Virus record (IMG/VR): IMGVR_UViG_3300032038_000007
Span: 32,001-96,000 of that record
Length of the DNA stretch: 64,000 nucleotides
Source: a virus
Lineage: Duplodnaviria > Caudoviricetes
Direction: 5' to 3' (one strand)
The notes below the pieces were generated by a model. That model searched no databases, had not been told where the DNA came from, and worked only from the letters and a program-made list of their open reading frames with translations. Shown here piece by piece: positions 2-51,958 of the stretch; positions within the stretch are counted from its first letter, which is position 1, and the number at the start of each line of letters is the position of its first letter. The translations under genes were made by a program, and so were the position numbers.

Positions 2-2677
2 GTTTCTGGCGGAAATAAGGTTAAAATTGATAAGGTGATTGGTGGGACGGTGGCGTGGAATTAGCTCGACTATCAGCGAGAAGGAGCAGCATTCACCGGA
101 CGGTACTCGCCTATGTGGCAGCTTACGGCATCAAACGCGCCGTACATCTATTCTGGGCATATCTATCTGTGCAGCTTCGTGCAACCTACTTGTGCTGTAT
201 ATCGGCAGAATGTTCCAGCTTTGCCAGCTGGTTATAAGGTATATCCCGCGCCGACAGTTGAGACAAGGCAAGAGTTTCTTGTTCAAGCAAGCGACAATCG
301 CGCACCCAGTGAGATAACTATATCTTTCGCTGGGATAATCAGCAAACACGCGACAACAGAAGAAAGCTACGCGCTCAAGGACAAGCAAATTTTCGACCTG
401 ACGCAGATGTTCGGCGCGACCGTTGCACAGCATTTCCTCGATCTGGAGACCGCAACCGCTGGCGCTGGCGTGGCTCTGTTTCGGCAGATGTTCCCGGAAA
501 GCTACTATCCGTACAATGTGGGAGAGCTTGTCAGCGTCCAGACGAGTTGCAGGAAGACGGTCGGGTTCAACCAGTGGGACGAGGTTTGGGAGTCAGGCAA
601 CATCAGTTCCAACACGGGCGTGAACATCGTAACCACCCTTCAGATTCGCTCGAAGAACTACCTCCGTGTCATGCCGAACACAACGTATTACTTCAAGAGC
701 GTTGCTAAATCTGGCGGCGGTTATGCCTATTACTACGATAAAAACAAGGCATTCGTTGTTGGCGGCATTAGCATTACTCGAAATAGTTCTTTTACAACCC
801 CCGCTGGCGTTTGCTATATGCGGTTTGTTGAAGGACAGTCATATGGTACGGCCTACAATCACGACATCTGCATCAACATCTCCGATCCCTCCCGTAACGG
901 CACATATGAACCGTACAGCGCTCACACTTATCCTCTGGGCAGCACTTTGACGCTTCGCGGTATCCCGGTTCTGACGGATGGCAAAGTGGCGTATGACGGT
1001 GACCAGTACGCGCCGGACGGGACTGTGACGAGGCGATATGGTATTGGTCAAATGACCTATGAATATATCAATGGATTAAATGAAGATTATATTGGTTATG
1101 ATAGTGCAAGAAATGCCGTATGGGTAAGGAATTGGAATTATACTGATTTAGCAGCAAGAAAGAAGGGCGGTATAAACGCAATTTGTAATATTTGTGAAAT
1201 TTCAGCTCATAACATTGATATATTCGCAAGTCAATATAGAATATATTTCCTTGGGTTTAATTCTGTTGAGGATTTTAAGGCAAAAATCCAAGCCCAGGAA
1301 ACATCGGGCAGCGGCCTTTATATCGTTTATGAGCTTGCTACATCCACGGCTGAAACCGCCGATCCATACGAATCCCTCCAAATCGCCGGTAGCACCGAAG
1401 AATTCATTGATGCCGGTGAGCGTGATGTTGCAGTACCTGTTGGCGTAACAGCAGGTTATTACAATGCTGCTACAATTGATTTGGATATTGATGTTGGGGT
1501 GTAGGATGTTTAGGTTAATGGGACTTCTGTAGTTTCTAATGGAATTGCGAATGTACCTCTCGCCGCCGACACTACACTTGGTGTTATTCAGGCGAACGGT
1601 AACTATGGTGTGTACGTTGATAGTAATGGTTATATGCGCACGTCAACCTGTTCATCTGCAGCCGTCAAGGGCGGAACAGAAAGCTACCGTACATTAAAAC
1701 CGAGCAATCAGCACGAATCTACTTTCTACGGTCTTGCTAAAGCCGCGGGCGCAGATATGAAAAATTCTGATAATGCAATAGGTACATATACCGCTGCAGC
1801 AAAAAGTGCTATCCAAAAAATGCTCGGCGTTACAGACCTTTTCGGTAATGAAGAGAATGGCATAACTGCTAGCCGCGCTTATGCTGCTGGTGAAGCATTT
1901 TTTGCCGATAGCAAGCTTTATCGGGCTACTGCCGCAATTGCATAGGATGGCGCGATTGTTACTGATAGTAGTGGGGCGAATTGTGAGGAAATTAGTATTA
2001 CAGAGGATTTTGTTAAGAAGACGGATTATGCAACTAGCTCTACTGCAGGTGTAGTTAAAACTAGTCAAAGCTATGGTACTACAATGTCCAATGGCGCGCT
2101 AGCCATTGCGCCCGCAAGTAACGATAATATAAAAGGCGGTACAAATGCTTATAAACCAATTGTGCCAGCGAAATAGGACTAGGCAGTATTCTATGGCCTA
2201 GCGAAAGTAGCGGGAGCAGATTTAGCTAGTGAGACTGTAACATTAGGAACGTATCCTGATGCTGCGAAAACCGCAATAAAATCTATGCTAGGAATAGCAG
2301 ACAGTTTTCCTGTTACATCCACATTAACCGACGATTTTTATTCTGTAAAAGTCACAAACGGGACTTCAACGCTAGTTAAAGAAACCTTTGATGCCCGTGC
2401 TTATGGTGCAGATGCTGGCGGAACTGGCGGCGCTATTAACGTTGAACTACAACGTAATCAGCGTCTGGTATATGGCGAAATGCTTGATATTCAAATTATG
2501 ACTGTGCCGTCTTATGGACTATGCGGTCTTACATTTATTAGTGGAAGTACGCCAACCGTTTTAACATTACCAGATACTGTAGTGATGCCAGAATGGTGGA
2601 TCGGCGCGGAAGCTAACCGCAGATATGATATAATGTTCTTGGATGGACATGGGGCGGTGATGTCATGGCCGCTATGA
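2..2677 (+). CDS. Tail/receptor-binding protein, 5' partial, TAG read as Gln
   Basis: ORFs 113-1504, 1610-1945 and 2285-2677 share one frame and are joined only by TAG. Readthrough gives GGTVAWNQL and VQDVQVNGTSVV. Two ~90-aa internal repeats (…FYGLAK.AGAD…GTY..AAK.AI..MLG). Ends at TGA, overlapping the next ATG. Confidence 0.8.
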
Positions 2678-3828
2678 TGCAAGAATGGTTTAATATGATT
2701 GCGGCCTAGCCGCATTTAGAAACTGTTGCTAGCGGTAATACAGGTTACTGCGATGCAATTGCACGATTTAAAACTAATTTAACTTTGCCGTTAAAAGAAG
2801 CAAACATCACACTGTCTCCCATTTAGGGAGGCAGTGGCGACCCTTCCCCGACAAATGTACGAGCTATTAGTGGTGTAGATAGTATTTAGGTGACTAAAGC
2901 GGGTGTTAATTTGTTGGAGTGTGATACTTTTAGTAATGGTACTGACTAGGGAATTACTTATACAAAAACTGTTAATGATTCTAATCAAATTGAATCTATT
3001 TAGGCGACTGGAACAACTTCAAGTGGTAATGTTTTTCGTAATTTAAATTATACACAAACTACCTTTAAACTTTTAGAAGGCACGTTTGATTTTTACGGCT
3101 ATTCTACATAGGTAGCTGTAATTCCAGTGCATACCAATACTCATTATAACGATATATCGGGCAAGTGGGCATCTAATTTTACAACAGTAGATTGGGATAA
3201 ATATAATATTACTAAACAAGCATCAGCTTGGGCAAGGCTTTAGGTAGTACCATATGCTTCAAATATAGAAGTTAATACAACAGTCTATCCAATGATATGT
3301 TTACCGCAAGATGAAGGATGCGATTATGAGCCGTTTAAGGGTATCAAATATAATATATCTTTTCCATCTACTATTTACAACGGCGCTCTTGACCTACTTA
3401 CTGGCGCTTTAACCGCAACACATGCTTGCATTACATTTGATGGCAGTTCTGATGAGCAATGGAATGTAGAAACTATATCTGCCGGAACTAATTTCTATAT
3501 TCAAGTTGCTGATGCAGATTATGAAGATGCCATAGGAGGAACTCAAATATGTAATATGGCTGTAAAAAGAGGTACAAATGAATATGCTTAGGGAAGATTT
3601 TTCATCTCTTCGTCTAAAAATTTTAACTTAGCAATTGGTGATTTAATCAATGTTACAACGCCTAGTGCATTTCGTGAGTGGCTAACAACTCATAATGTTC
3701 AATTATATTATAAATTAGCTACTCCATTAGTATATCAACTTACCCCGCAAGTAATTCGCACCTTCCGCGGTGTAAACAACATCTGGTCAGATAATGGAAT
3801 TATGAATATAAAATATTGGACTAATTAA
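2674..3828 (+). CDS. Tail-associated protein (TAG=Gln)
   Basis: ATG 2674 to TAA 3828 with about 8 in-frame TAGs. Contains PI(Q)GGSGDPSPTNVRAISG and C-terminal YQLTPQVIRTFRGVNNIWS, typical of Bacillota phage tail proteins. Confidence 0.75.
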
Positions 3829-3872
3829 TTTGCGGCATCCGCCGCGTATTTCTCATCAAGGAGGAATTTATT

Positions 3873-4184
3873 ATGAATCAATACTATATTATTGAAATAC
3901 AACAATATCTAAATGGCGAATATGGTCATATTGTACACTATGCGTATGACCAAGACCCAACTCGCGCTCGTTTATTAGCAGAATCTAAGTACCACGAAGT
4001 ATTAGCGGCTGCTGCTATAAGTGAACTACCAAGTCATAGCGCCACCTTACTAACAGCAGACGGACGCTCTTTAATGAATCAGTGCTACCGTCACGCTGTA
4101 CAGCAGACTGAGCCAGAAACTGAACCTGAGACTGAGCCAGAAACTGAGCCTGAGACCGAGCCTGAGACTAATGAGGAGACTTGA
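3873..4184 (+). CDS. Hypothetical protein with C-terminal (EPET)n acidic repeat
   Basis: RBS AAGGAGGA upstream; ORF track; ends in TGA. Confidence 0.75.
   Translation: MNQYYIIEIQQYLNGEYGHIVHYAYDQDPTRARLLAESKYHEVLAAAAISELPSHSATLLTADGRSLMNQCYRHAVQQTEPETEPETEPETEPETEPETNEET
4107..4170 (+). repeat. 12-bp tandem repeat encoding EPET (about 5 copies)
   Basis: actgagccagaa/actgaacctgag/actgagcctgag units with synonymous variation. Confidence 0.85.
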
Positions 4185-4653
4185 TTGGAATCGAGAAAGG
4201 TGGCGCACTCGTGATTTATTATTAGAATATGATACTGCGATTATGCCTCCTCATCCGCGGGCTGGTGGAATAGCAGTAGTTTATCCGTGGGGGTCATCCT
4301 ATTATGACAACGTAATAGATTATTCTGTTCCACATCTACCTCATACTACTAGCTTATCTATGATTTATCCATGGGAAAATACTTCATTAAATATACTCAA
4401 TCATTAGTTATATTTAATTGCCGTACAAAATGGTTTCGATGGCACAGAAGAAGACTTTAAAGATTTATTCAGGGGCTATGTAGGGCCACGTAGTATTCTA
4501 TTTGCTACTTACGAGAATTTTCCTGAAACTGGTATTCAAGATAAGTTATATTTTGACTTGGAAACTAAAATTTTATATTATTGGAATAATGAATACATTC
4601 CAGTTAATGCAATGCTAATTGCTGATACTGCACTTGATGGAGGCGGTGCCTAA
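4171..4653 (+). CDS. Hypothetical structural protein (TAG=Gln)
   Basis: Reads through TAG 4405 into LYLIAVQNGFDGTEEDF and ends LDGGGA-TAA, overlapping the next ATG. Confidence 0.7.
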
Positions 4654-5351
4654 TGGCTACAAATTCAGTAAAAGTTACATTATAGATTAGGCATGACATA
4701 GCCTCAAATTGGACAATAAGAGACCCCGTACTCGCCCAAGGCGAGTACGGCCTCGAGCAGGATACTTTTTTAATTAAAGTTGGTGATGGTGTACGCACTT
4801 GGTCTAATCTTCCATATTTAAATAAGTTAAATGCAACTTACTTCAAATTACTAGAAGACGGAACTATGACCTTTAGCGATGAATTCATGAACACCATTGC
4901 GGCACTTGAAGCCGCGGCTGGTCAAGCTATCACTAAATTAGAGGTCACTGATCCTCCAGTAAAAGATATAGATGTACCAAATAAAAAGTATGTTGACGAT
5001 GCCATTAGACAAGCGGGACATTTACATAGAGAAGTTGTAAACGCTCTACCAGACGCGGCTGAAGCTGATGAAAATACATTGTACATGTTATTGGCTACAG
5101 ACGGTAATCATTATGAAGAATATATGGTCATTAATGGCGTTTGGGATATGGTAGGAAGTACTGGGGATGGTACTGGAGTATATGAGTTACCAATCGCGAC
5201 TAACGCTCGTCTTGGTGGCGTTAAATCTTCAACAGCAGACGATTTTATTGCAGTAAATCAAGACGGATTTATGACTTTAAATAACGTTTCTACTACAAAA
5301 CTGTATGTTCCAACGGGGGATGTATTTATTATTTACGGCGGCAGCGCTTAA
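4653..5351 (+). CDS. Tail protein with Mtd-N/hyaluronidase-type N-terminal domain (TAG=Gln)
   Basis: TL(Q)IRHD..NW…PVLAQGEYGLEQDT..KVGDG..W..LPY motif; joins ORF 4866-5351. Confidence 0.8.
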
Positions 5352-5364
5352 GGGGGTGCAATAA

Positions 5365-7305
5365 ATGGCGGAACATATGATTGAAGCACGCATATTATTG
5401 CGCTATGATACCTATTCTAACTGGATGAATAGTACAACTATTTTAAAATAGGGCGAAGCAGCGCTCGCCGCCTTTCCCCTTGATACAAATATTGCTGGCA
5501 CTAATACAGCACCAGAGCATACACCGCCAGCTATTGGGATGAAAATTGGCGATGGCTATCATAGATTTTCAGAGCTCCCTTGGCTACAGGGCGTTGCCGC
5601 CGATGTATATAATTGGGCAAAACAGGTAAACAAGCCAACTTATAGTGCCGCCGAAATTACAGGATTAGAGCAATTAATTGAACAATATGTTAGAGAAATA
5701 AGCGGAGGCGATATTACAATTGAGCCAAAAGCTTATCGGCTATATCAAGGCACTGGCGATGATAGTGAAAAATATTTTTTATAGTCTCGCGGTTCTAATG
5801 ATGTAACTTGGGTAACAGATACTAATAACTATATTGATTTAACGAAATATTCCGATGCAATCAGTTGGTTAGGTACTGCATATGAAAATTATTGGACATT
5901 GGCTGGTTATATTACTAGCCGTCTTAACGATAAATTTAGTGCCTTAACGGTAGAAGATAATGCAGTACAAAATTAGTTTGTTACTTCTGTTAGTGAATCA
6001 AATGGCGTAATTACTGTCACACGTTCTTCAATAAATGCTTCAATGATTAACGGGGTTTTGAGCGTTGACCATGGCGGTACAGGCATATCAAACATTCCCT
6101 CTGGGCATGTTATTATCGGTAATGAGGCTGGCGCTGTAACTACCACAGAAGTAGTTAGTAGATTTGAGTATGGATTAGATTCTAATTTAGCAACTGTAGG
6201 GGCTATAACTCGTTACGTGGACAACGCAACTGCTGGTCTCACCGGCGCAATGCATTTTATAGGTGAAGCTACCGTTGTTATTACGCACAATTCTAATGTT
6301 GACCCCCGCATTAGTGGATATGATTTTCGTTAGGCATAGCCCGGCGATGTTATTTTAAGTCCTGATAAGGCTGAATATGTATGGACTGGCGCCAATTGGC
6401 GGCTACTTGGTGATGAGGGAAGTTATGCAGTTAAGGGCAGTATTACTAATGTTGATATTGCTGACAATGCAGAAATTGATTAGTCTAAAATAGCTAATTT
6501 AGACAGCTCTTTATTTTCTAAAGTCGATAAAGTTAGCGGAAAAGCTTTAAGTACAAATGACTATACCGACGAAGAACAAAATAAGTTAGCCAGTATTGAA
6601 GAGAATGCGCAACGAAATCTTATTGAACACATTTTCCTTAACGACGTTGAAGCGACTCCTACCGTGCGCGAAGGGAAGCCTAACTCTATTTCAATACGTT
6701 TAAGTTCGTTAACGCCCGATGAAGAAGAAAAATTGCGCGGTATTGAAAGTTATGCTCAAGTAAATACTATTGAGCATATATTTTTAAATGGCGTTGAGCT
6801 TGGAATAGGACGAGTTAATTAGATTGATAAGGCTGTTAATATTGAATTAATTGAATTTACCTAGCAAGAAAAAACCAAGTTAAACAATATTGAAGCAGGA
6901 GCTTAGGTAAATACTATTGATGGTATTACAGTGAATGGGTAGTACATAATACCCTCGCAAGACAAAATTGTAGACATCACTGTACCAGACCATGCCGACC
7001 ATATAAATAAAATTGAAGAAATATGGTTGAATGGCGTAAAATTAACGCCAAATGAGAGCAAATAGGTAAATATAGTAATTGATACAGCGGCTGTCAATTT
7101 TACTGTTATTGAAGGGGCTAGAGTTCCTCTCACAGATAACACTTACGAAAATGTAGATATAGTAGAAGATAATGGGCATAAAAAATTAGAGTTCTCAAGA
7201 ATTGCAAAGACTGGTAGTATATACGATATAAATAATACTCCAGCTTCAAATACAACGGATTATTTAATTTTAAATTGCGGCGATGCTTCTACATTTATTG
7301 ATTAA
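5365..7305 (+). CDS. Tail fibre-like protein with Mtd-N-type domain and AQVNTIE repeats (TAG=Gln)
   Basis: RILLRYD..NW…KIGDG..FSELPW motif. Fragments 5539-5784 and 6043-6333 are in one frame. Repeats AQRNLIEHIF, AQVNTIEHIF and A(TAG)VNTIDGI. Confidence 0.75.
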
Positions 7306-7338
7306 ACTTGGCTGGAATGATGCCGAGGAGGAGTTTTC

Positions 7339-7896
7339 ATGGCAACAAAAACCGTGAATACAAGAATTCAGTTGAAAAGTGACACTGAAGCAAATTGGCT
7401 AAAAGCAGGGCCTAAAGAAGGGTCTACAGGCTTCGTGCCACTTAAGGGTGAGCTCATCATCTATTCGGCTGATGGGGCTCACCCTTTTTCTCGTTTAAAG
7501 GTGGGGGATGGAGAACATAATGTTACTGCATTGCCGTTTATTGATGCGGGAACTGTTGGAGGACAGGTTCTTTCTTAGGTAATTCTTCAATATGACAATA
7601 TAAACTCATTCCCTTCTATAGGACAAGAAGATAAAATGTATATTGATTTAGCCACTAAAGCAATTTATTGTTATAAAGCTAGTACAGGATATGCACGTTT
7701 ATCTCATTTTACTTATACCGCCACGACAACAAATATTCCTATTATTTCTAGTTGGGATAAAGGTGTAATGACAACGGCATCAATAGATGGAACTGCTTTA
7801 GCTATTGAGAATGGCCGTGAGCCAGAACTAACATTCGTAGACGGCGGTTTAAATGTAGTTACAGGTATTAGCGAGGTGAATAATACAAATGGCTAA
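7339..7896 (+). CDS. Tail protein with Mtd-N-type domain (TAG=Gln)
   Basis: RIQLKSDTEANW…PLKGELIIY…RLKVGDG…LPF; one TAG at 7576 joins ORFs 7339 and 7636. Confidence 0.8.
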
Positions 7897-10243
7897 TGGA
7901 TATATAGGTTAGGTTCGTATAGGAACTAATGATTATAAAATAGGCTCTACATTATATGCAGTTTGTAGTGAAACAGGGCAAAATAGAACTGTTGTAATTG
8001 AGGGATTTGCTATAAGTACTGGCGTTACAGTACATATTAAATTTGAACATGGATATACTGATACCGCAAATGCTCCTACTTTAACAATTAAATCCAGCAG
8101 TAGTGACTCAGACGCGCTTCCTTTTGATATTATTAATGCTAATGGCCCCGAAACATGGAGCGATGGTAGTGTAATTTCTTTAACACTTACAGGAACTTCA
8201 ACAGATAATTATAAATGGGCTATAAATAGCAGTGCTATTGACGGCTCTTCTATTTAGAATCTTTCTTTAGGTTAGATAACTAGCGCCGGCAAAATTGCCG
8301 GAAAAGCTTCATAGGCTGTAGTAACAAATGCAAGCGCGGAAATTACTGCTATTAATTTAGCTGTTGCAGACCCGGATGCTGATGGTACTGGTTTAACTTT
8401 TATTGATACTATTTCTTAGAATTCTTAGGGTAAAATTACAGCCACTAAAAGAACAGTTTAGAGTGCTTCTCGTGAGCAGGCTGGCGTCATTCAGTTGCCT
8501 AGTGGTACTACTACAGAAAAATTTCTACGTGAAGATGGAACTTGGATAAAACCTTCATATATAGCAAATACAGATACTAAAATACGTGTTTATTTAGCTA
8601 CTAATTCCACTGGCGTAGAATTACCATTAGTTGGATTAAATAGCGGCAATGCCACCGCGGCTTATGCTACTCATACTTCTGGCACAAAAGATGTTTATGG
8701 TGCAATCCCTAATACTGTTGCTAATCGTGCGACAATCAATTCCAAAACTGGCGCCATTACTGTGCCAGGGGGTATTATTGGTAATGCTTCTACAGCAACT
8801 AATTTCTCAGCGGCAAAAAATATTGCCTTAACAGGCGATATTACCGGTAATGCAGATGGCGGAGCTTCTGGCGGATGGTCAATTTCTACTACAATTGGAG
8901 CAGGCAAAGTTACTAATGATATGCTAGCAGGCTCAATTGCCATTACTAAATTAACCGCTTCTACAATTGCTATTGGCACTTAGACTAAATCATTAGGGCA
9001 ATCTTTTGATACCGCAAAATTAGTAACAGATTTAGGCTTGTCATCAGCGATGAAATATAAAGGTGGAGTCGCTTCTTTGCCAACGGCTACTAGCAGCACT
9101 ACTTTTAGTACTTATAATGCGGGTGATGTAGTAACTATTACTGGAACTACTAATCAAGGAAAAGAATATGTATATAATAAAGGTGCAACAGCCGCGGCTT
9201 CAAGTTGGGTCGAATTAGGAGACGAAAGCTCATATAAGGTAAAGCAAGATGCAGTAACAAGTCCGTCAGTACCAGAGTCAGGCCCCAATTCTGAGACTGC
9301 TTTTATTGATACTATTACTTAGGACGTTAATGGCGTTATAACCGCGACAAAAAAGAATGTTAATTTCCCAGTGACTTCTGTTGCAGGAAAAACCGGCGCG
9401 GTGACACTAAGTAATACGGATGTCGGCTTAGGTAAGGTAACCAATCACGCATAGGTTACATCAATAACTTGGAGTAATAGCACTTTAAAGCAATCTATTA
9501 GTGGCGGAACTGCTACTGATATTGTTACGGCTAGTACATTAAAAAGCGCAATGTCCTTAAGTAATGTAACTAATGATGCACAAATTGCAAAATCTATTGG
9601 TACAACTAAAGGCGATATAATTTATTTTGATGGGGCTTCAAGCCCAAAGAGACTAGATATTGGGACAGCAGGACAAGTTTTAACTGTTTCTGATTCAGGA
9701 ATACCGGCTTGGGAAGCTAATGCTTCAACTGATGAAAAGGTTGAACAAATTCCATATAATGATGGCACAAATGATAAAACTTTTAATCTTTTATTTAAGC
9801 ATACAAATAATGATACAAAAGAAACTAATAATGTATATTATTCTACTGTATCTAGCAAGAAATTAACATTTAATCCTAAATCTGGTACTTTAAGTGCTAC
9901 AAAATTTAGTGGTAGCGGCGCTGGATTAACTACAAAGTCAGTTCCTTTAACTGCATTAGCTGATTATGATGGAACTGGGACTAAATTTTTACGACAAGAT
10001 GGATGGAAAACAGTTAGTGTATCGTTAACTGGTTCTACAAGTACAAGTAAGACTGTAGTTACTAATGTTACATTTAATCAAGGTAGTTTTCCAACTTTAG
10101 GTGAATCAGGCAAGGCCGCAAAATTTAACGTTAGCAACGGTGTGCTAGAAATTACAGCTGGTAGCGATGCCGCATTAAGCAGTGGCACATTGCCTTCTCT
10201 CGGAACAATTAGCAGAGCAACATTAGGAATTACAGGAAGTTAA
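7889..10243 (+). CDS. Tail fibre protein (TAG=Gln)
   Basis: ATG 7889; ORFs 8495, 9038 and 9551 are in frame; Thr/Ser/Gly-rich; motifs GNASTAT, VTSVAGKTGAVTL, KGDIIYF..RL.IGT.GQVL. Confidence 0.75.
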
Positions 10244-10256
10244 GGTGGTGAATTAA

Positions 10257-13200: not shown

Positions 13201-16200
13201 ACACTACTCAAATTGCTACTACTGAATTTGTAATGAGTTAGTTTAAGTATAATGATGCCATGATTTATAAAGGCGTGATTAATGCTAATTCAGATTTACC
13301 GGCTACACATTATCAAGGATGGACGTATAAAGTAGGCACGGCTGGAGAATATGCTGGCATTTAGTGTGAAGTTGGCGATATGATTATATGCAATGCCGAT
13401 GGCACAGCCGCAAATAATGCTCATTGGAATGTTATTTAGACTAATATTGATGGCGCGGTTATAAGTTCTTCTGCTAGTTCTACTGATAATGCAATCGCGC
13501 GATTTGATGGAACAACAGAAAGAATTATTCAAGATAGTAAAATTACAATTGATGACAATGGTAATTTACTTATTTCACATGCGGCTTCTGCTACAATGAC
13601 TGCAGCTTCTACTAATCCTAAAATTACTTTTGCTGAAAATGGCTCACAACCTGTACATTTAATTTATAGTGATTGGGATAGTTATCGTTCCCCAGCTGGT
13701 TTAAAAGTTGTTGGTGGAACAAGTGCATCGCCAGCGTGGTTTGAAGTTGAAGGAAATACTTGGTCAGCAGGATTTAAAATTACTGGCACAACCACTTCAT
13801 TAACAGATAACAGTTTAACCTTCTCGCAAGGCGGCGGCTGGTATATGAACGATGTTTCGTGGATTCGTACAGTAGGCGGTAAATCTGTTTATATGAATAC
13901 AGGTATTTTTAGAAATGATGGCACTACATAGTTAAGACTATTGCAGCATATTAATGCTAATAATACTACTGATGGTGCTTGGCAAACCGGTGCAACTGGT
14001 ACAGACAATAGCGGAGATGGTTATGCTACACAAGGCACGCTTGGCACATCAATATTATCCATCGGCAATGCTATTGCCAGACCGGCTGCTGGTACCGCAG
14101 GCGGTAAAAATAATTCTAAGGGTTATTTGCGTATTTATGGTGAAGGAACAGGTTATGGTGAACTATCATATGACGATTATAGGCTCGTCTCTAATAAATC
14201 TATCTATTTAACCAATACTACAAATGATGGCATTAGCAATGAAATTCGTGGTCTTACTGCCACTAATGATTATTGGCGCATTGCAGGTGGAGCAACAGCA
14301 TCTAATGCAGGATATATGGAAATTGCAACTGCAGATGATAGTAATGAGCCTATATATGTAAGACAGTATAGTGGTACTTTTTCTACTTTAAAACGAACAG
14401 CAACATTATTAGATGCAAGCGGTAATACAGAATTCCCTGTACAAGTTACAGCACCAAAATTTATTGGAGCATTATAGGGAAATGCTGATAGTGCAGATTA
14501 TTTAACCACTATAGATGTTACTAATTCAACAATGAATAGTACTGCCGGCTCTTTTGCCTTTAAAGGTGCTGGTGACCCATGGGCAGGTACCGACTGGGTA
14601 GGATTATAGATAGGTAGCGCTAATGATAAATGGTAGTTAGTAGCTGGCGGTTCTGGTAATAATAGTCTTTAGTTTAGACAAAATGATAACGGTGGTACTA
14701 ATACTACTTGGAAATCTTGGCAGAATATAGCACACGCGGCGACTGGTGCTGCTATTGGCGGTGAAAAGCAACCTGTTTATATGGCAGCGGATGGTACTAT
14801 TACTGCTGGTACAGCTCTAAAAAATTTAGCATATAAAGATTCTCTTACAGCAAATGATATACCAGATATTAGTGGTACTTATTTACTAAAATCTGGCGGA
14901 ACAATGACTGGCGCACTAAATTTTACTGATGGCGAGGATTTGAATATAACTGTAGATCCTAGTACTGGTACCATTTCGGCGTCTAATTATTTAGGTAATT
15001 GGAATGGATGGCTTAATACAGAAGTAGGAGATTGTTTTACATATAAGTACTCTATGACATATACTACCGAAACCGCTCCAATGGAAGACTGGTATTTAAA
15101 AGTTATATTTGAAACTAATTATCCATCTGTACGATCAGCAATAAGACTTAAAGCATTTTATGCTAATATTATCGGTACTGTATATATGTACTGGGATGGA
15201 TATACTACTGATAACTGGTATGCATATAAATCATTTTACAATGGCGGAAATGTTCTTGCATTAAAACATGGAAAAGCTAATAGTCGCCATGAATTATATA
15301 TAAAAATGAAAGCAACCAGAGAATATCCAACTGGTCAATTTGACCTAGGCAAACTTGAAGTTCTCAGCCCATATCGAATAATATCCATTGAACAATTAAG
15401 TACAGAGCCAGACGGCTTAGTGACTCTCAAAGATAACGGCTATACTTTTTATGGAGATAATATAGAATTTAAATCTGCGAATAGCTTCACGTATAGCGGC
15501 ATTGGAGCAGCAGGTGATAATTCCTCTAGGACAATATGGTTCAGTCATAGTAGTGCTAGAGGACGTCCAGTCTATGATGACGACTTTAAATACAACCCAT
15601 CTACTAATGTATTAACAATCGGTACAGGAACATTAAGCGACACCGAGTATAGCGGAAACGCGGCAACTGCTACAACTGCAACAAATGTAGCATGGAGCGG
15701 TATAACAAGCAATCCTATTACTTTTACAAGTGCTGCCTATGGAACAACAGGATGGAAGCAACTTGGAGGACGTTCAGCTAACAAATCTTCTATTGTTGTT
15801 TTTAAGCCAACCGGTACTACTGCTACTTGGGGTACTGCAGCCCATTCTGCAGTTATTGCATGGGGATGCGGTGATACTAAGGGAATGCTTGATGTAGCAT
15901 ATAGTAGTCCTTTAGTTAGTATTGCAGGCGGTAATAATGGTGGCTCAACTGATGGTGCACCTACATGGTATTTTAAACTATCTGCAACATCAGGTCAAAC
16001 TTATACATTCCCAACTACTAGTAAAACGCTTGCCGCGGCAGATGGTTCCAATGCAAGTGGTACTGAATGGGCTATTTCAATTACTGGTTCATCTGCTTCT
16101 TGTACTGGAAACGCAGCAACTGCTACATCATTTGCGGCAGCTCAAAAAGTTTATGTAACTCTTGGAACCGCTTCAACAACAACTACAATTCAAGGCGGTA

Positions 16201-16868
16201 GCGATACCGCTCAGACAATTGGCGTCAATGGCACATTAGCTATCTCCAATGGCGGCACTGGTTTAACTAGCGCTGACCCGCATAAAATTCTTATAGGCCC
16301 TGCTTCTGGTTCGGCCGCGGCTCCTACTTGGCGTGTACTTGCTGCGTCTGACTTACCTATTGCAACAAGTAGTGCGGTCGGTGCAGTATCAGTAAGCACT
16401 GGGCTATCCGTATCAACCGCCGGCGCTTTAACATTAAATATTGCTAAATATAATAGTCTTGGTGGATTAAAACCAGCATACACTAGTACCGGCGCGGCTA
16501 GCGGATTTACAGCGGCTTCAAATAGTAGTACACCTGCGTTGAACGCGCGCACAACAACCACTGGTCGATACTATGCGGTTGAAGCAGATAAAAATGGTGT
16601 ACCTTTTGTAAATGTTAACTGGACTGATACTAATACTTTAGTTAATTATACACTAGGCACTACCACTAAAGCATACTTAATGGCATGCCAATCTGCTCCT
16701 ACTTCTACTACAACCGCTCGCGCCGCACATGGAGACACTGGAGTTTATCTTACTTCAACAGCAGGCGAGCTAAGTTCTGAACGTTATTCATATAATGTAG
16801 GCGGCACGGAAAAAGTTTATACATATTATAATGCCACCGATAAGTCTATTGATTTTGTATTCATCTAA
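10257..16868 (+). CDS. Giant tail fibre protein, about 2,200 aa (TAG=Gln)
   Basis: ORFs 10935, 12063, 12771, 13596, 13941 and 14781 are all in frame with ATG 10257, and each internal one ends in TAG. Contains ASPALTGTPTAPTA…TTQIATTEFV and GNAATAT fibre motifs. The gaps were not checked codon by codon for TAA/TGA. Confidence 0.7.
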
Positions 16869-16880
16869 GGAGGGGTAATT

Positions 16881-19226
16881 ATGTTAAAACTATGGTTACC
16901 CCTTCTTGGGGATTTTAAACAGCAAGGATGCAGTGATATTATACCAGAAATTTTTGGTAATATAGTTTCTGATGATTACGGGAAACTTGGAAAATGTGTT
17001 TCATTTGATGGAACCACTGGTAATTATATTAGAATTCCACCAATGCTTACTGCAAATAGTGAATTTTCTATAGCATTTTGGTGTAAATTTTCTTCTCTCT
17101 CTCACAATCATTGTCTATATAGTCAAAGAACAAGAGTAACTGATACGGGATTTACTATATTTTTATCAACAAATAAAAATATTATGTTTGATGCAGGCGG
17201 ACGTTTAAATGCCGCAAGCGGTTTTGTAACAAATACTTGGTACCATGTATGCTGTTGTCGTGATAGTAATAAAACGTATATTTATATTAATGGCGTTTTA
17301 GCAGCTTCTAGAAATAATGCTACAATAGAATCAACTAATGTAAATGGAAATTATTCTCTAATCGGAGGAAGTGGTAGCAACGCAGCGGGAGCAGCACCAA
17401 GCGACAATTATTTAGAAGGATGCTTAAACGATTATCGTATTTATGATAATTGTTTATCCGCGGCTGAAGTCCATGAATTATCGCAAGGTCTGTTTTTGCA
17501 TTATAAATTAAATGGGCCATTTAATGGAATAGGTACTAATTTATTAGCCAATAGTAATAGGTCATGGACTTGTACAAAAGAAAATACTACAGCGCGTACA
17601 ACTACTTTTTACTTGGTTTCCGATTTTGATGTTTCTACATTAACTAATAAAACTATAACCGTATCATATCTACGCTATAGACCCGCTGGGGATTCTGTTA
17701 GCACAAGTAGCGGCGGCGTAAATAATAGATTCGGGGCTCATTTTAGTGTTACTTGGACGAATGATGAAGGAGAAGCATCTACTACTCGTTATCCAGCTCC
17801 ATTAATATTAAGTGCAGCCACAATTACAGACCCAATTTAGCGAGTGTCTGCTTCATGGACGGCTACCCCACCGGAAGGTTACACAAAATTAAGAAGCTTT
17901 TCAATCGCGTGGCAAATGACTGCTCGTCCTGCTGATAGCAATGATGACGTTTGGGTGATGGGTTATCCAAAGTTAGAAATTGGTAACTATGCAACTGCAT
18001 ATTAGCCAGCAGAGACAGAAGGCAATGTTATTGTTGATAACAGCGGTTATGGAAATCATGGAACTGTAAATGGTGATTTAATATATGCATCAGATAGTAA
18101 AAAATATTCTGCGTAGACTTATATTGGAAATGGCACTGCTCAATCAGTTACTGTTCCTAATATTCCATTTGAAAATTTCTCAGAAGGAACATTAAGTATT
18201 TGGATTAATAGAAAATCTACAAACTCTAATTGGCGGTTGTATACTATATTCTCTAATGGTTATAATTGGACTGGCAAAGGTAACGATTTTATAATCATTG
18301 GAAGTACAGGCGGCTTGGTGGTCACATTAGACTGTTGTAGTAATACGTATGGTTTTGTTCCTAACTTAAATGAATGGAATATGTATACTATTACATGGAA
18401 TTTAGTAACTCATGAAGCTAAAATGTATGTAAATGGAAAATTGAGGGCTACAAAAAATAGTGAACGTATAGATACAACTTATGCGTCTAAGCATAATTTG
18501 CATTATTTTGGTAACAGGAATTTAAGTAATTCTACATATACCGGAGACTATTTACTTTCAGATGCACGAATATATGCAACTGAATTATCTGAACAGGATG
18601 TTATGCAGCTTTATAACACCGCTATGAAAGTAGATAACGTCTACAATGCTCATATAGATGAAATTGTTGAATCTGAATCTCAGACAAAATTACTCTCTAC
18701 AGGCACATTAATGTCGCCCGGATTTGTAGAAAGTGGTATGACTTTTAATGAGACATCAGGTTGGTCATATAATCCAACTGGCGGGTATAATTCTACTACT
18801 GGAGGATAGTCTATTGTAGTAGATTTTTCTCCTTTAGTAGATTTACATGCGGATGTAACAGTCGAAATTGAATGCGATTTAACTTGGTCAAATTTTACTC
18901 CTGTTGAAGGTCAAACTCCAAAGGCTTTCTTCCAAGGAACTAATTAGTCATTAAATGATTCGTGGGTTTGGTCCGGAAATAACTATACACTTCCAGCCTC
19001 TAGCGTAGTTTCATTAATGACCGCCGACTCTTCCGGCACTGTTCATTATAAAGTATAGAAAACAATACCAGCAAGTTGGTTTGATACATATAAAGGTTCT
19101 CATGTATCGTTTAGAGTAGACTATGCCACTGGAACTATTACTTTAAGTAATTATAAAATAACTATCGCAAATTCGTTTAAAATACTCCAAGATTATATTG
19201 GAAGTAATGAATTTATTGAAATATAA
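16881..19226 (+). CDS. LamG/concanavalin-like domain tail protein, two LamG domains (TAG=Gln)
   Basis: FSIAFWCK…WYHVCC…IYINGVL…LNDYRIYDNCLS, and a second copy WNMYTITW..KMYVNG..SDARIYATELS; ends TAA 19224. Confidence 0.8.
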
Positions 19227-19239
19227 GGAGGCTCAACTT

Positions 19240-20985
19240 ATGGCTTTATTAAAAGATACTACAGTCTCCGGGAGCCTCCGGGCAACCGATTCTATTTTTA
19301 CTACTGAATTACAAACATAGATATTAAACGCACCACTAACTTCTAATGGTACAGAGTATGGCCCCGGTACAGACGGCCATATATTACGTTCAAATGGAGT
19401 ATCTTCATACTGGGGAACTGTAGCCGCATCCGAGGTCGGCGCTGTTCAAATAACCGGCGATACAATGACTGGTAATTTAGCCATTGATTCTCTAACCAAT
19501 ACGCCATCGTTAATATTATATCCTGTAACTAAAACTAAGATATATTAGGGACAGTTTGATACGGATGGATCAGAAGGCTCGGTATCTATTGGCGGTTGGA
19601 ATAATTCATCTGGTACGATTAGAAGAAAATTGTTAGTGCAAATGCCAGGCAATAGTATATATGGTGATTCATTAGATCAAGCTATCCGCCTTGGCGTTTC
19701 AGAGAATGGCGGCACGACATGGACAGGTTATCATGTATATCATTCTGGTATGAGTGGCATTGGCATTCAATCTGGTACACAACTTTTTGGTGGAATATTT
19801 TTTGGGACATGCTCAACCGCGGCGGCAACTACACAAAAAGATGTTGTATGCGCTAACTTTCCTAGTTATACTGAAGCGCCGCCTACTGGAATTATGATTA
19901 ATGTATTATTTGATAATGCTAATACGGGCGCCGTGGCCAACTTAACATTAAAAATTAATAATAATACTCCCACATTTCCAATAAAGCAAATTAACAATAG
20001 TAATAATACAGTTACTAATTTGTCTACTGCAAAACAATTAACCGCTGGCGGCATAGTAACATTTGTTTTTACTGGTGAAGTTTGGCAAGTAGTTGGTATA
20101 AATTATGACTCTAATAGCAATACATTATTGAGAACATACCATCTATCTACCGATGTTGAATTACCTCTTGCGGCAATTGGTGGAGTCTCTAATAATACTA
20201 CAGCTAGTGTTCAAACCGTTAACTCTAGTCATTATCACGAGGGTTATGGAATAACAGCAACTACTAACACGCCAACATTAAATCCATCTACTGGAAAAAT
20301 TACTGTTGCCTCACTTACTATAACTAGCAGTAATAACTCCGAATTGAGTTGTACTACAGCAGCGCCTATACATATTAGTTCTGGCCAAACTGCTGCATGG
20401 AATGGTATTATAGGAGCTAAAACAAAAAACGGTTATATAGGAATTTATACTGCCGCGCATAGTACAAACGGTAATGATTAGCTTAGATTTGCTTATTCTA
20501 ATGGCAGCGCTATACAGCATAGAATGACTTGGAACGGCGCGACTGGTGAATTAGTTGCTACAAAATTTACTACCAATAGCTCAAACGACTACGCCGAATA
20601 TAGAGCGCGAATTGACGCTAAACCTGGTACAGTAGTGGTAGATAAAGATAACGGCGAATTGGAAATTTCTTCCAAGCGGCTAATGGCAGGAGCGCAAGTA
20701 ATTTCTGACACATTTGGTTTTAGTATGGGCGGAGCTGATACAGATACTACTCCAGTTGCAGTAGCCGGAAGAGTATTAGCATATCCATACCAACCACGAG
20801 AAAATTATCACGCCGGTATGGCAGTATGTTCTGCGCCAAATGGTACTGTTGATATAATGACGCGTGAAGAAATACGCGATTATCCCGACTGTATTATAGG
20901 AATCGTTAGTGAAATTCCACAATATGAAGAGTGGGGAAATAATAAGATTAGTGTTAATGGTCGTATTTGGATTAAAATAAAATAA
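19240..20985 (+). CDS. Tail spike/fibre with C-terminal intramolecular-chaperone (peptidase G2-like) domain (TAG=Gln)
   Basis: RBS AAGGAGG; ORFs 19630 and 20524 are in frame; C-terminal NDYAEY…PGTVV…VISD…PVAVAGRV. Confidence 0.7.
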
Positions 20986-21053
20986 AAAGACATAAATACA
21001 CTTACATATCTATAGAACAAATGAGTTTAACTCATTTATGAGGAGGGATATAT

Positions 21054-21257
21054 ATGCCGCATGCAATGACACAAAGAGGAAATCAAGATAATATTGTTAC
21101 ATATACTCACTGGTGTGATACTAAGGCAGATATGGAAGATATAGAAGAAAGCACTATTACGTTAGGTACTGTCTGTGTAGTGTTAGAAGATGAAAGTTCC
21201 AATGGTGGCCTAGAATTTTACATAGCTAAATCAGATAAAACCTGGGTTAAAGCATAA
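21054..21257 (+). CDS. Small hypothetical structural protein
   Basis: RBS GAGGAGG; ORF track. Confidence 0.7.
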   Translation: MPHAMTQRGNQDNIVTYTHWCDTKADMEDIEESTITLGTVCVVLEDESSNGGLEFYIAKSDKTWVKA

Positions 21258-21271
21258 GGAGGGAAGATACT

Positions 21272-23320
21272 ATGGCAATAGATATAGTTGACATCCTTCT
21301 TGCTCGCGCAAAATCTTTTACTGGAGAAACAAAAACTCTAGTATAGCAAGCTCAGGCTGCAATGTCTGATGCTAACGATATAGTCGATAGGCTATCTGAA
21401 ATACAATAGGACACGCAAGAAGCTAACGAATCGGCTCAGAATGCGGCGGATCGCGCGCAAGAAGTTGCTAGTGACTTAGAACAAATGCGTAATGACGTTA
21501 CCGCCGCAGCTCAAGAATTAATAGATGACTCTATAACCGCAAGTTTAGTTGATGTAAATTCAGATATTACTGAATTGCAAAATAGTATTACTAATATTAA
21601 TAATACTGTTGTTCCAGAACTACAGGCTCAAATTGCGGCCGCGGCTCAAAGTGGCGGTGACAAGGTTACTATTAGTGATAACAACAGTAATGCCGCAAAA
21701 ATACGTAATGCAGTTATTAATGACTCAAATTCCTATGTAGTAGAAAAGAATTATACTTCTACTGGATTAAATGAAGACGGCTCCATGACACAAAAGGCTA
21801 TTACTAATGCCTTGACCGCAACCAAAAATGAAATTGAAGCGGCTATTGATGCAAAATTAGCTAATATTACTATCAGTGGCGGTGGTGGAACTATTAATCT
21901 TGGTATTGATAATGAAGGGCATTTAGTAGTTATTGGTGTAAACGGACAGCCGATTGCGGCGGCTGTAACAGAAACAGATGTAATTGAATCTCTAATTAAA
22001 TCTGGTTCTTATCATTTAGAAAATACTGTCGGCTTAGAAATGGATTATGAAAATAAGATTTTTACTTCAACTTAGGACAATATGTCTACAGAAGAAATCA
22101 ATAAATTACCAATGTTTGGCGGCAGAAAACGTTGTAATGTTGCAGATGATGGCACTATTACTGCTTTCTACGGCGAATCTAATTATCGCGAGGACGGATC
22201 AAATGGCCAAGTAATGGTATACCAGCCGAAATTCTATTATCGTAGGGTTATTACTAAATCAATTTAGGCAGCTAACGGGCAGGTTTCGAAAAAAGAAAGT
22301 CTAATTATTTCTCCAATAAAACTGACTTCTAGTTTTAAAATTCATCCATTATTTATTAATGAATTAGGGGAAGAAGTTGAATATGTATTGTTGTCTGCTT
22401 ATGAAGGTAGCATTTATAATACTTCGTCTAGTAGTTATGATTTAACTTCTGAAGCAGAAATTAATCTTGAAACAGATAAATTAAGCTCTATTGCAGGCGC
22501 TAAGCCAGTCACTGGTTATACTCATCCTAATTTTACAATGTTAAATGCAGAACATCTTGCAGTTAATAGAGGTACTGGATGGCATATAACTAATCTTGCT
22601 TTTGAAAGCGCTCAACAAATGCTCATGAGCATAGAGTATAGTACTTTAAATGGATAGGCAGCTTTAAAACAAGGAATTGTAAACCTTCCAAGCGCTTCTA
22701 ACGCTAATAATGCTTGCATCACAGGTTCTACATCTGCATTAGGCAATAGCAGTGGTGAAGCCGAGTCTTCAACTGGAAGTATAGACGGAGTACAATAGAC
22801 ATATACAGAAGAAGGTAAACTAGCAATTACTTATAGAGGATTAGAAAATCCATGGGGAAATACTTGGAGATATGTCGGTGGTTCTTTTGCATATGGTACT
22901 GGATTGAATACTGGCGGCAAGCTATATATCAATACTGATTTTAATTATAGTTTGAACGTATCAGCGGCGAATATTTATCATTTAAACTGCACTCTTCCTG
23001 GCGGTTATAACTGGGTTTCTTCTGTCTTTGCTTTTGAAGATTAGGATGACTGGATTTATCTACCTGCAGAATTTTCATCTGCAAATAGTGCCTTACCAAT
23101 TGGAGATGTACTGTGGACAACGCCATATTTAAATGGAACTAATTCATTGCTGGCCGGAGGAGACTGGGATAGTAAATTAGAAGCTGGACTTTACTCTTAC
23201 GCTTGTGATAGAAAGGCTGATACAGTATCTAGTAGTATTAACGCTCGTTTAATGTATATTCCAGTAAAGAACGCTTCATATACTGCAAATATAACAAAAT
23301 GGTAGGCGCTGGGGGTGTAA
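21272..23320 (+). CDS. Tail-associated protein with coiled-coil N-terminus (TAG=Gln)
   Basis: ORFs 21485, 22082 and 22388 are in frame. Motifs DGSNGQVMVYQPKFYY, HPLF, SAYEG and YRGLENPWGNTW. Ends TAA 23318. Confidence 0.75.
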
Positions 23321-23323
23321 TAT

Positions 23324-23581
23324 ATGAAAAATTATGGACTTGTTTATAGCTTTTCTCGCCCGACAGAAGTTGAATTAACCGATACAAAAGTATATGTTGC
23401 TACAAATATTGAAGAATGTATAATTGAAAAAAGCGGGCAGGAACTGAATGGCTTTAAGTATAATTATTATGGCTATACAAAAGACGAATACATTCAGAAA
23501 ATAACTGAAGATAATGCCAACACTGTATCTCAATTAGAAGAAGAATTAAATGCTACTAAGATACTACTGGGGGTGGAGTAA
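23324..23581 (+). CDS. Hypothetical protein, possibly tail-assembly associated
   Basis: ORF track; lies in the tail operon. Confidence 0.65.
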   Translation: MKNYGLVYSFSRPTEVELTDTKVYVATNIEECIIEKSGQELNGFKYNYYGYTKDEYIQKITEDNANTVSQLEEELNATKILLGVE

Positions 23582-23582
23582 A

Positions 23583-23993
23583 ATGACATTAACCGAATTA
23601 GCTCGTAAACTCCGCCCACTGATTGAAAAAGCCGCGCTTTCGTTAGATGATACAGACGCGCTTGAAGCAGTAGAATTATATCCACGTTGGTCAGGAAAAG
23701 GCGTTGATTATATTAAAGATCGACGGGTATCATTTAACAATGTTTTATATAGAGTATTGCAATCGCATACTTCACAAGAAACTTGGATGCCAGATGTAAC
23801 GCCAAGCCTATTTGCAAAGGTATTAATTCCAGATCCAGATGTTATTCCAGATTGGGAATAGCCAGATAGCACCAATCCATATATGAAAGGTGATAAAGTA
23901 AGATTCGATAATAAGATTTATGAATCTGCAATTGATAATAATATTTGGTCACCTACTGCATATCCGGCAGGCTGGATCGAAATACCAGAGTAA
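23583..23993 (+). CDS. Carbohydrate-binding (CBM5/12-like) protein (TAG=Gln)
   Basis: YPRW…LYRVLQSHTSQ..W.P..TPSLF…WE(Q)PDSTNPY.KGDKV…YESAIDNNIWSP..YPAGW; readthrough at 23859. Confidence 0.8.
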
Positions 23994-23998
23994 AATAT

Positions 23999-24027
23999 TT
24001 GACTTTTTTAAAAAATTCTTATATAAT
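23999..24027 (+). promoter_or_regulatory. sigmaA/sigma70-type promoter, first of about 19 copies
   Basis: TTGACT-17 nt-TATAAT. Similar sites at 25315, 25929, 27242, 29992, 30704, 33765, 36026, 38940, 45918, 48049, 48523, 51133, 52680, 53645, 55755, 58549, 58636 and 61168. Confidence 0.85.
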
Positions 24028-24804: not shown

Positions 24805-24894
24805 TGGGGCGTAGTTCAATGGCAGAACACCGGTCTCTAAAACCGTTATATCCCTCTGAAGGAGGTGGTCTGGGTTCGAGTCCCAGCGCCCTAG
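24805..24894 (+). tRNA. Amber suppressor tRNA(CUA), tRNA-Trp-like body with long variable arm, likely charged with Gln
   Basis: TGGGGCG TA GTTC-AATGGCA-GAAC A CCGGT-CTCTAAA-ACCGT, 23-nt variable region, CTGGG-TTCGAGT-CCCAG CGCCCTA G; anticodon CTA at 24837-24839. Confidence 0.88.
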
Positions 24895-24943
24895 CTTACT
24901 CTATTAAAATAAAAATAATATGGAGCGTTTATCGCTCCACTAC

Positions 24944-45971: not shown

Positions 45972-46826
45972 ATGTATAAATCTCCATTAAATTATGTTGG
46001 GAATAAATATAAATTACTTCCATAGCTATTAAGACTATTCCCTAAAGATATTAATAACTTTATTGATTTATTTTCTGGCGGTTGTGATGTAACTATTAAC
46101 ACTCCAGCAGAAAATAAATATGCAAATGATATTAATTTTCCAGTAATTGAAATTTTACTTGCTTTTCAATAGACCTCAATTGAAAAAACTTTAGAATTTA
46201 TTGATAATCGGATTGCTGAATTCAATCTAAGTAAAACTAATGAAGAGGGGTACTTACAATATAGAGAAAAATATAATAATGGAACATATAATTCTCCATT
46301 AGATTTATTTACGTTAAGTAGATTTAGTTATAATCAATTATTTAGATTTAATAAACATGGTGAATTTAATAATGCGTTCGGGAAAAACAGAAGTAGTTTT
46401 AATGACAATATGAGAAATAATTTAATTTTAACTTATCCAAGTATACAAGATATTCACCTTTCTACATAGGATTTTAGAAAATTTAAATTAGACAATATAC
46501 AAGAAAATGACTTCTTTTATATTGACCCGCCGTATTTAATTGCCAGAGCTGATTATAATACAGGCAAAACCGCGGGGCTATCTTGGACAGAAAAAGATGA
46601 ATTGGATTTATATAATTTTTTAGATAATTTAACCAAGTTCGGTATTAAATGGGGCTTTTCAAATTTTCTTAAACATAAAAATAAAACCAATACTATGTTA
46701 TATTAGTGGTTGGAACTACACGAATACCATATGTATAATATATAGGCAGATTATTCTAAATTAACCAATAAAGTATAGCGTAAAGAATAGTCTACTTTAG
46801 AGATATTAATTACAAATTATGATTAA
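45972..46826 (+). CDS. Dam-like DNA adenine methyltransferase 1 (TAG=Gln), missed by the ORF track
   Basis: KSPLNYVGNKYKLLP(Q)L, FIDLFSGG, YIDPPY and EILITNY. Confidence 0.85.
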
Positions 46827-46847: not shown

Positions 46848-47132
46848 GTGATAAAAGTGGAGACTAAAAAATTTAATGAATTAACTAGAGAGTTTTTAGA
46901 AGAATTTATTCCTAAGCTCCCTAAAGAAGATAAAAAACAGCTAAAAGAATACATAGAAAACCACCCACGCGACTCTTCTTCTAGTCTATTTGCAATGATA
47001 AAAAGTTATATATATAATAATTATTTTAGAGCTAAGCCTAATCAAGAGAATCATAAATCGGGCGGCACTTTTGCCGACATAATCGACGATTTATTAAGGG
47101 ATGATGACAGCGATGACTAGCCCGAAAACTAA
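46848..47132 (+). CDS. Hypothetical protein
   Basis: ORF 46848-47120 extended through TAG to TAA 47130. Confidence 0.6.
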
Positions 47133-49833: not shown

Positions 49834-49847
49834 AGGAGTGAATTATT

Positions 49848-51119: not shown

Positions 51120-51178
51120 TCAGCCTCCCTATTTGACTTTCAATAAAAAATAGGCTATAATATAAAAGAAAGGAGATA

Positions 51179-51957: not shown

Positions 51958-51958
51958 A

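Follow-up and report, generated by a model that had tools for sequence, protein, structure and literature searches.

Does the codon TAG end genes in this phage, or is it read as an amino acid, and in that case which one? The question is raised by a stretch of 64,000 nt (the window), which spans positions 32001-96000 of one virus contig of 166,616 bp (IMG/VR record IMGVR_UViG_3300032038_000007; G+C 38%, 95% complete by CheckV). It concerns above all the first part of the window, region 2-23993, where the open reading frames (ORFs) are broken by TAG under the standard code (code 11). An earlier annotation made from the letters alone, here called the original prediction, proposed that TAG is glutamine (Gln) in this genome (code 15). 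TAG recoding in region 2-23993 is confirmed, and the sequence comparisons presented below support the reading of TAG as Gln. For the tail-fibre, head-packaging, tape-measure, methyltransferase and homing-endonuclease genes we consider it very probable that TAG is decoded as Gln by a phage-encoded tRNA(CUA), with TAA and TGA as the stops. The choice of code matters greatly for the annotation, as the standard code leaves about one quarter of the genome seemingly non-coding or broken. Reading TAG as Gln reveals a 14-gene tail-fibre module, a tape measure of 5,990 amino acids (aa), two Dam-type methyltransferases and homing endonucleases.

Reading frames and coding density

With TAG as a sense codon, region 2-23993 holds 14 ORFs, all on the plus strand, that cover 23,588 of its 23,992 bases; PHROGs and Pfam assign these to the tail and virion (tail fibre, tail protein, Laminin_G_3 and CBM_5_12). 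The 7,895 codons of the 14 ORFs include 79 internal TAG, no internal TAA and no internal TGA. The ORFs end in TAA (12) or TGA (2) and several overlap the next start, as had been postulated for the real gene ends. The two alternative frames of the same ORFs contain 352 and 771 TAA and TGA codons, hence chance cannot produce frames this long past a true stop. It had also been claimed that standard-code ORFs in the region end almost only in TAG. This holds for the internal breaks, where 79 of 79 are TAG, but not for all ends, as the 30 code 11 ORFs of at least 80 aa on the plus strand of positions 1-24000 end in TAG (18), TAA (9) and TGA (3).

Coding density, measured as greedy non-overlapping ORF coverage, was one of the checks suggested along with the original prediction, and it showed a large gain that is specific to TAG. 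In region 2-23993 code 11 reached a density of 0.662, in 36 ORFs with a median of 102 aa. Reading TAG as sense gave 0.990, in 15 ORFs with a median of 388 aa, all on the plus strand, while TGA as sense gave 0.686 (37 ORFs) and TAA as sense 0.813 (42 ORFs on mixed strands). The corresponding values for the whole genome were 0.687, 0.925, 0.720 and 0.815. The two relatives available as whole genomes, G001 (166,678 bp) and G002 (179,585 bp), are also recoded; with TAG as sense their densities are 0.90 and 0.91, against 0.71 and 0.67 with code 11. The 475 TAGs found in ORFs of at least 150 codons are distributed along the ORFs (36 to 66 per decile), and a TAG at most five codons from the ORF end was seen in 11 ORFs versus about nine expected, an estimate of our own from an in-frame TAG frequency of 1.1%. 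Within the TAG-rich genes TAG makes up 1.64% of the codons, and CAG is depleted to about half (0.66% vs 1.43%).

Distribution of TAG and possible gating of late genes

The TAG load is unevenly spread over the window. The tail module (2-23993) has 79 TAGs in 7,895 codons, and positions 43555-49291, with a 778-aa protein, two methyltransferases and a GIY-YIG endonuclease, have 31 in 1,706. The block at 49288-63999 (gyrase, helicase and other replication genes) has 4 in 4,362 codons; it encodes a nucleoside deoxyribosyltransferase, a permease, GyrB, GyrA, an AAA_24 protein and a DnaB-like helicase. Apart from the exceptions given below, the early and replication genes are readable in the standard code and the structural genes are recoded. 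Since the replication genes are almost free of TAG, they would be readable by an unmodified host, and the TAG-rich genes would yield full-length protein only after the suppressor tRNA has built up, so that recoding may act as a late-gene gate. This split fits the late-gene-gating model published by Borges et al. (bioRxiv 10.1101/2021.08.26.457843).

It could also be that TAG is Gln while no timing device exists, the suppressor being present from the start and the TAG load reflecting the history or the expression level of each gene. We regard this as possible but rather unlikely. Several points do speak for it and against a gate: the timing is judged from gene content alone; a near-consensus promoter-like site upstream of the tRNA array could mean early expression of the suppressor; a helicase-like gene outside the window carries 19 TAGs; and a 181-aa ORF without a family match (window 38190-38735, plus strand) stands alone with 5 TAGs in the TAG-poor early block. 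On the other hand, TAG is about 10-20 times rarer in the replication block than in the tail and methyltransferase blocks, and the Borges preprint reports this division for further clades of recoded phages.

Two proteins of the head module contain no TAG, a 361-aa protein (phrog_4088, 1.9e-43) at 142941-144026 of the genome (minus strand) and its 191-aa neighbour; the surrounding genes all have TAG.

The amino acid at TAG

To the two whole genomes we added 28 IMG/VR loci around TerL, two of which (L012 and L036) lie within G001 and G002 and were excluded, leaving 26. A codon-by-codon tblastn comparison with these relatives yielded 302 TAG sites and 1,305 aligned codons. The codons most often found opposite the phage TAGs were CAA (274), TAG (252), GAA (136), CAG (89) and AAA (84). 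Counted as residues, the sense codons were 36% Gln, 17% Glu and 11% Lys, and Gln was the plurality residue at 73 of 264 sites, followed by Glu (30) and Lys (25). As CAA is two bases away from TAG, the exchange between CAA and TAG points to synonymy and not to mutational nearness. The BLOSUM62 log-likelihood was best for Gln (-674, with Glu at -729, a gap of 55 units). Of the 48 sites with at least five aligned sense codons, 19 were conserved to at least 80%, as Gln in 16 cases, Glu in two and Ala in one. In the reverse direction, 221 of 643 phage residues opposite the relatives' TAGs were Gln, a 12.2-fold enrichment, where Ser (0.9-fold) and Leu (0.5-fold) were not enriched. TAA was found opposite a phage TAG in nine aligned codons, seven of them from two antisense ORFs that the greedy caller had miscalled (window 29378-29965 and 48110-48493 (-)) and that were excluded from the 48-site count but are included in the 1,305-codon totals. 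The remaining two fall on one site, in an 81-aa ORF outside the window (genome 149610-149855).

Phages that use the standard code gave the same top residue. In six such phages, with no stops inside the alignments, Gln accounted for 20 of 110 residues opposite TAG (5.1-fold enriched), and it was invariant at TerL position 74 (6 of 6) and at portal position 154 (5 of 5). Among 150 Dam-type methyltransferase representatives with a mutual identity below 50%, Gln was again the top residue at the TAG sites, with 25.7% overall (11.3-fold enriched); the x of KYKLLP-x-L was Gln in 111 of 147 representatives, and position 139 of the second methyltransferase (MT2) in 105 of 150. Altogether four kinds of comparison place Gln at the TAG positions, in line with the original prediction. 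The 120 close TerL proteins of the protein collection show Gln at three invariant TAG columns, but these may be code 15 translations and were not relied on.

The short motifs that had been put forward in favour of Gln were located as quoted. The repeat AQVNTI (GCT CAA GTA AAT ACT ATT, 6754-6771) recurs with TAG in place of CAA (GCT TAG GTA AAT ACT ATT, 6901-6918), V-TAG-D-V-TAG-VNG has its TAGs at 1502 and 1511, and WE-TAG-P in the CBM gene has TAG at 23859, where the relatives have CAA and TAG. The two D12 methyltransferases contain KYKLLP-TAG-L (46023) and KYKLLS-TAG-L (47197), and the relatives have CAA at both sites. In the GIY-YIG gene the TAG of YIG-TAG-S is at 48629 as described, but a conserved YIGQS was not borne out by the one aligned relative, which has TTA (Leu) there.

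Some results weigh against Gln or limit the comparisons. Region 2-23993 is poorly conserved and gave only 36 aligned sense codons, with Gln on top at 9. Neither the 778-aa protein nor the 784-aa tail protein had a relative in IMG/VR, hence G001 and G002 are the basis of the comparison within the window. For the methyltransferase representatives neither source nor genetic code is recorded, and a few of them may be code 15 translations. In T4 Dam (PDB 1yfj) four of the five MT2 sites are occupied by E, M, K and E, the fifth, position 81, giving no confident reading, so the Gln of the family is not visible in single structures. When TAG was set to Q, E, K, S, W, L or Y in the two methyltransferases and the CBM protein, the Pfam scores did not set Gln apart: the first methyltransferase (MT1) reached 133.7 bits with W, 133.5 with E and 132.3 with Q, MT2 reached 103.3 with K, 102.6 with L and 102.3 with Q, and the CBM scores were flat. 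Alignments of paralogues and repeats within the genome are few and gave X 6, K 5, T 4, E 4 and Q 1 of 32.

Glutamate is the residue that comes second in the relatives, both among the sense codons and at the plurality and conserved sites, and in MT1 it scores 1.2 bits above Gln. It could be inserted in a host that lacks glutaminyl-tRNA synthetase (GlnRS), as many Bacillota do (PMC9976931), if a non-discriminating glutamyl-tRNA synthetase (GluRS) loads Glu and the amidotransferase does not convert it. We find this highly improbable. Gln is ahead of Glu in log-likelihood and by 16 to 2 at the conserved sites, the commonest partner codon of TAG is two changes away from it, every aligned standard-code phage has Gln at TerL position 74 and at portal position 154, and the mark for the amidotransferase, U1-A72, is present in the tRNA(CUA).

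The suppressor tRNA and its loading

The presence of a CUA tRNA had been reported with the original prediction, and the gene at 24805-24895 is the only UAG-reading tRNA of the phage. Its anticodon arm is of the tRNA-Trp type, and over bases 2-41 the tRNA shares 90% identity with annotated tRNA-Trp genes. The bacterial (E. coli) identity set for Gln consists of G73, U1-A72, G2-C71, G3-C70, G10, U34, U35, G36, A37 and U38, U1-A72 being the amidotransferase mark as well (PMC9976931). The tRNA(CUA) has G73, U1-A72, G3-C70, G10, U35 and A37, and departs from the set in G2-U71, C34, A36 and A38. E. coli tRNA-Trp that is given a CUA anticodon is charged by GlnRS (PMC2965240, citing Yaniv 1974).

Neither an RF-1 domain nor a Glu/GlnRS catalytic domain was found in the genome (95% complete). 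We therefore suggest that the tRNA is charged with Gln by the host, through GlnRS or through a non-discriminating GluRS followed by the amidotransferase, and that the loaded tRNA would compete with host release factor 1 at UAG.

Judged by the look of the tRNA, TAG might instead be Trp, Ser, Leu, Lys or pyrrolysine. The similarity to tRNA-Trp would suit Trp, the length of 91 nt with an extra arm would suit Ser or Leu, Lys is third opposite TAG with its 11%, and pyrrolysine is the label given by ARAGORN. The residues opposite TAG make all of these very doubtful: Trp is the plurality residue at 1, Ser at 14 and Leu at 8 of the 264 sites, and neither Ser nor Leu is enriched where the relatives have TAG. 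The tRNA has a D arm of the ordinary short type, the stem of its extra hairpin has only 3 bp, and 'Pyl' is the name ARAGORN uses for any CTA anticodon. A Ser- or Leu-type (class II) identity was ruled out by the residue counts and the ordinary D arm.

That TAG is simply a stop, and the region a set of broken genes or an assembly artefact, would agree with the 36 short ORFs of code 11 but is already refuted and next to impossible, as every one of the 79 breaks is a TAG after which the frame continues while the other frames are full of TAA and TGA, the two whole-genome relatives show the same pattern with TAGs that exchange with CAA and CAG, and a matching tRNA is present.

In G002 a group I intron of about 293 nt interrupts the matching suppressor tRNA(CUA) gene (101722-102109; L038:1171-1557) between U35 and A36. 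The intron scores 46 bits, just below the Rfam cut-off of 50, and joining the exons restores the same anticodon loop. ARAGORN in its plain mode does not detect the gene, and such splits could help to explain suppressors that are 'missing' in recoded phages.

The extra hairpin of the suppressor tRNA

The variable region of the tRNA(CUA) folds into an additional hairpin. The 16-base anticodon stem-loop has an exact match in 74 IMG/VR contigs; ARAGORN finds a CTA tRNA in 61 of these, and 44 of the 61 are 86-95 nt long. From phage contigs we assembled 27 distinct long tRNA(CUA), those of this phage and G001 included. The set is biased, as it was gathered by the exact Trp-type anticodon arm, with four long tRNAs of Ser, Leu or other type excluded. 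All 27 have a variable arm with a 7-nt loop of the form N-Y-[CUG or UUG]-N-N, with CUG in 20 and UUG in 7, and the loop is closed by three pairs in 23 and by two of three pairs in 4. The stems co-vary (UCC/GGA, CUC/GAG, UGC/GCA, CAC/GUG and GCC/GGC), and in shuffled variable regions the design appeared on average in 0.81 and at most in 4 of 27. RNAalifold proposed another fold for the arm, with 5 pairs and a 3-nt loop; this was rejected, as MAFFT had placed the shorter arms one base out of register, and a per-sequence search favours the register with the 3-bp stem and 7-nt loop.

The same design is found in phages with a distant TerL (36% and 33% identity; 8 and 2 in-frame TAGs) and in the published phAss-1 genome. 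It is nearly absent from prokaryotes: with one genome for each of 185,579 bacterial and archaeal species, it was detected in two contigs of metagenome-assembled genomes. We found no description of the hairpin in the literature, and the main text of the phAss-1 paper is silent on it, the word 'variable' occurring 0 times (PMC10607447).

The hairpin structure is shown; its role in loading is conjecture. We speculate, with somewhat less than even confidence, that the extra arm is a miniature second anticodon arm, which displays the true Gln anticodon and could help the Gln-loading enzyme of the host to accept a tRNA that reads a stop. Suppressors without the hairpin exist, and a 3-bp stem at the tRNA elbow is far from the usual contact between synthetase and anticodon.

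Some recoded phages have suppressors in tandem, one of 72-75 nt without the hairpin and one of 88-91 nt with it. Examples are phAss-1 (OQ749652.1; L138:310-381 and 388-475) and L043; the present genome has the long one only.

In our opinion the suppressor tRNA is the most useful lead from this locus, being a natural and widespread design for a stop-reading tRNA with a spare Gln anticodon loop. The hairpin and the intron could help to explain why a suppressor is detected in only about 40% of TAG-recoded phages (Borges preprint).

Feature map of the window

Table 1. Features of the window discussed in the text, with positions counted from the first base of the window and the number of in-frame TAG codons.
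Position	Strand	Feature	In-frame TAG	Remarks
2..2677	+	C-terminal 891 codons of a 1,426-aa ORF	6	starts before the window; ends in TGA
2665..3828	+	387-aa ORF	8	TAA end; ATG overlaps the end of the preceding gene
3873..4184	+	103-aa ORF	0	
4171..4653	+	160-aa ORF	1	CAA at the site in both whole-genome relatives
4653..5351	+	232-aa tail-fibre-like protein	1	Mtd_N; PHROG tail fibre families; CAA in one relative
5365..7305	+	646-aa tail-fibre-like protein	11	internal repeats (AQVNTI, A-TAG-VNTI)
7339..7896	+	185-aa ORF	1	
7889..10243	+	784-aa ORF	10	
10257..16868	+	2,203-aa ORF	23	partly paralogous to the 784-aa ORF at 7889..10243
16881..19226	+	781-aa virion protein	6	Laminin_G_3 domain (4.4e-39)
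19198..20985	+	595-aa ORF	3	
21272..23320	+	682-aa tail protein	8	phrog_5302 (1.2e-55); position 462 is CAA and CAG in relatives
23324..23581	+	85-aa ORF	0	
23550..23993	+	147-aa CBM_5_12 protein	1	WE-TAG-P
23999..24027	+	promoter-like site, TTGACT-17-TATAAT		11/12; after the tail module, upstream of the tRNA array; consensus match only
24805..24895	+	suppressor tRNA, 91 nt		anticodon CTA at 24837-24839; Rfam tRNA 56 bits
24851..24863	+	extra hairpin in the tRNA variable region		stem TCC/GGA; 7-nt loop CTCTGAA; CTG at 24856-24858
43555..45891	+	778-aa ORF	15	no function assigned; opens the second TAG-rich block
45972..46826	+	D12 (T4 Dam-like) adenine methyltransferase 1 (MT1)	7	
47101..48027	+	D12 adenine methyltransferase 2 (MT2)	5	
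48563..49291	+	GIY-YIG/NUMOD1 homing-endonuclease-like gene	3	
49288..63999	+	TAG-poor block	4	14 listed ORFs, 4,362 aa

Within the TAG-poor block a permease of the xanthine/uracil type (Xan_ur_permease, 4.9e-64; 49848-51119, plus strand) is itself free of TAG and adjoins the nucleoside 2-deoxyribosyltransferase; as a membrane transporter it is unusual for a phage. Three RNA features lie between the suppressor tRNA and the second TAG-rich block, all on the plus strand. A drum RNA (RF02958, 75.8 bits) at 28049-28155 is found directly upstream of a tRNA-Val (28157-28232). The tRNA-Leu(UAA) at 28534-28880 has its anticodon loop interrupted by a 261-nt group I intron (about 28559-28809), as indicated by Rfam Intron_gpI with 62.8 bits and by ARAGORN with introns allowed. 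A second tRNA-Ile(UAU) call of 66 nt (30473-30538) scores 29.9 bits, which equals the Rfam threshold, and may be a degenerate copy.

The phage and its genome

The genes of the whole genome include a portal (phrog_2739, 3.4e-61) and a 5,990-aa tape measure ORF in which TAG occurs 152 times (119211-137183 of the genome, minus strand; PhageMin_Tail, 5.1e-29). An endolysin (SpoIID, NlpC/P60 and PG_binding_1 domains), gyrase and DNA polymerase III alpha are also encoded, and the tRNAs number 17. TerL is 30-36% identical to TerL of large Geobacillus, Alicyclobacillus, Bacillus, Enterococcus and Lactococcus phages. Gene content and TerL similarity together point to a siphovirus-like phage with a host of the Bacillota (Gram-positive) type. 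A nucleotide search of GenBank phages with the TerL-portal region gave no match.

Comparison with known recoded systems

It was acknowledged with the original prediction that recoding of TAG to Gln is not new, and this is indeed well established. Gut phages of the crAss-like, Lak and 'gemstone' clades have been described (Borges et al., bioRxiv 10.1101/2021.08.26.457843; Peters et al., Nat Commun 2022, PMC9523058), phAss-1 (OQ749652.1) has been published (PMC10607447), and the NCBI taxonomy has a 'Caudoviricetes code 15 clade'. Like the crAss-like, Lak and gemstone phages as they are reported there, the present phage has in-frame TAG in structural and lysis genes and TAG-poor early genes, and it has its own tRNA(CUA) and would rely on host synthetases, as those phages do in hosts with the standard code. 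It appears to differ from the code 15 gut clades in its lineage, being an approximately 167-kb siphovirus-like phage with a TerL similar (30-36%) to that of Bacillota phages, and it lacks a release factor gene, which some Lak and Agate phages have.

The likeness to phAss-1, as that phage is described (PMC10607447), extends to a large siphovirus-type genome, a very long tape measure, DNA polymerase III alpha, a class III ribonucleotide reductase, many tRNAs, and TAG as Gln in TerL, portal and tape measure. The long tRNA-Sup-CTA of phAss-1 is 90% identical to the suppressor found here over bases 14-82 and has the same extra hairpin, although in phAss-1 it is accompanied by a short suppressor next to it, which the present phage lacks. 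The TerL proteins are 33% identical and the genomes differ in size (167 kb vs 136 kb), and the tape measure, almost twice as long as the 3,149 aa of phAss-1, implies a very long tail. Given the 33% TerL identity and the lack of a nucleotide match for the TerL-portal region, the phage is a distant relative of phAss-1 at most and not a member of its genus (Phassvirus).

The suppressor further resembles E. coli su+7, which has a Trp-type anticodon stem-loop (CU-CUA-AA), G73 and a weak 1-72 pair and reads UAG as Gln (PMC2965240). While su+7 arose from a host tRNA by a point mutation in the laboratory, the tRNA described here is a phage gene with U1-A72 and an added hairpin, and its loading by GlnRS is putative. 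Coding of TAG as Gln in phages is thus already in print, and this genome adds one lineage, a large phage of Bacillota-type hosts, which shows the same split between early and late genes in TAG load as the known code 15 phages.

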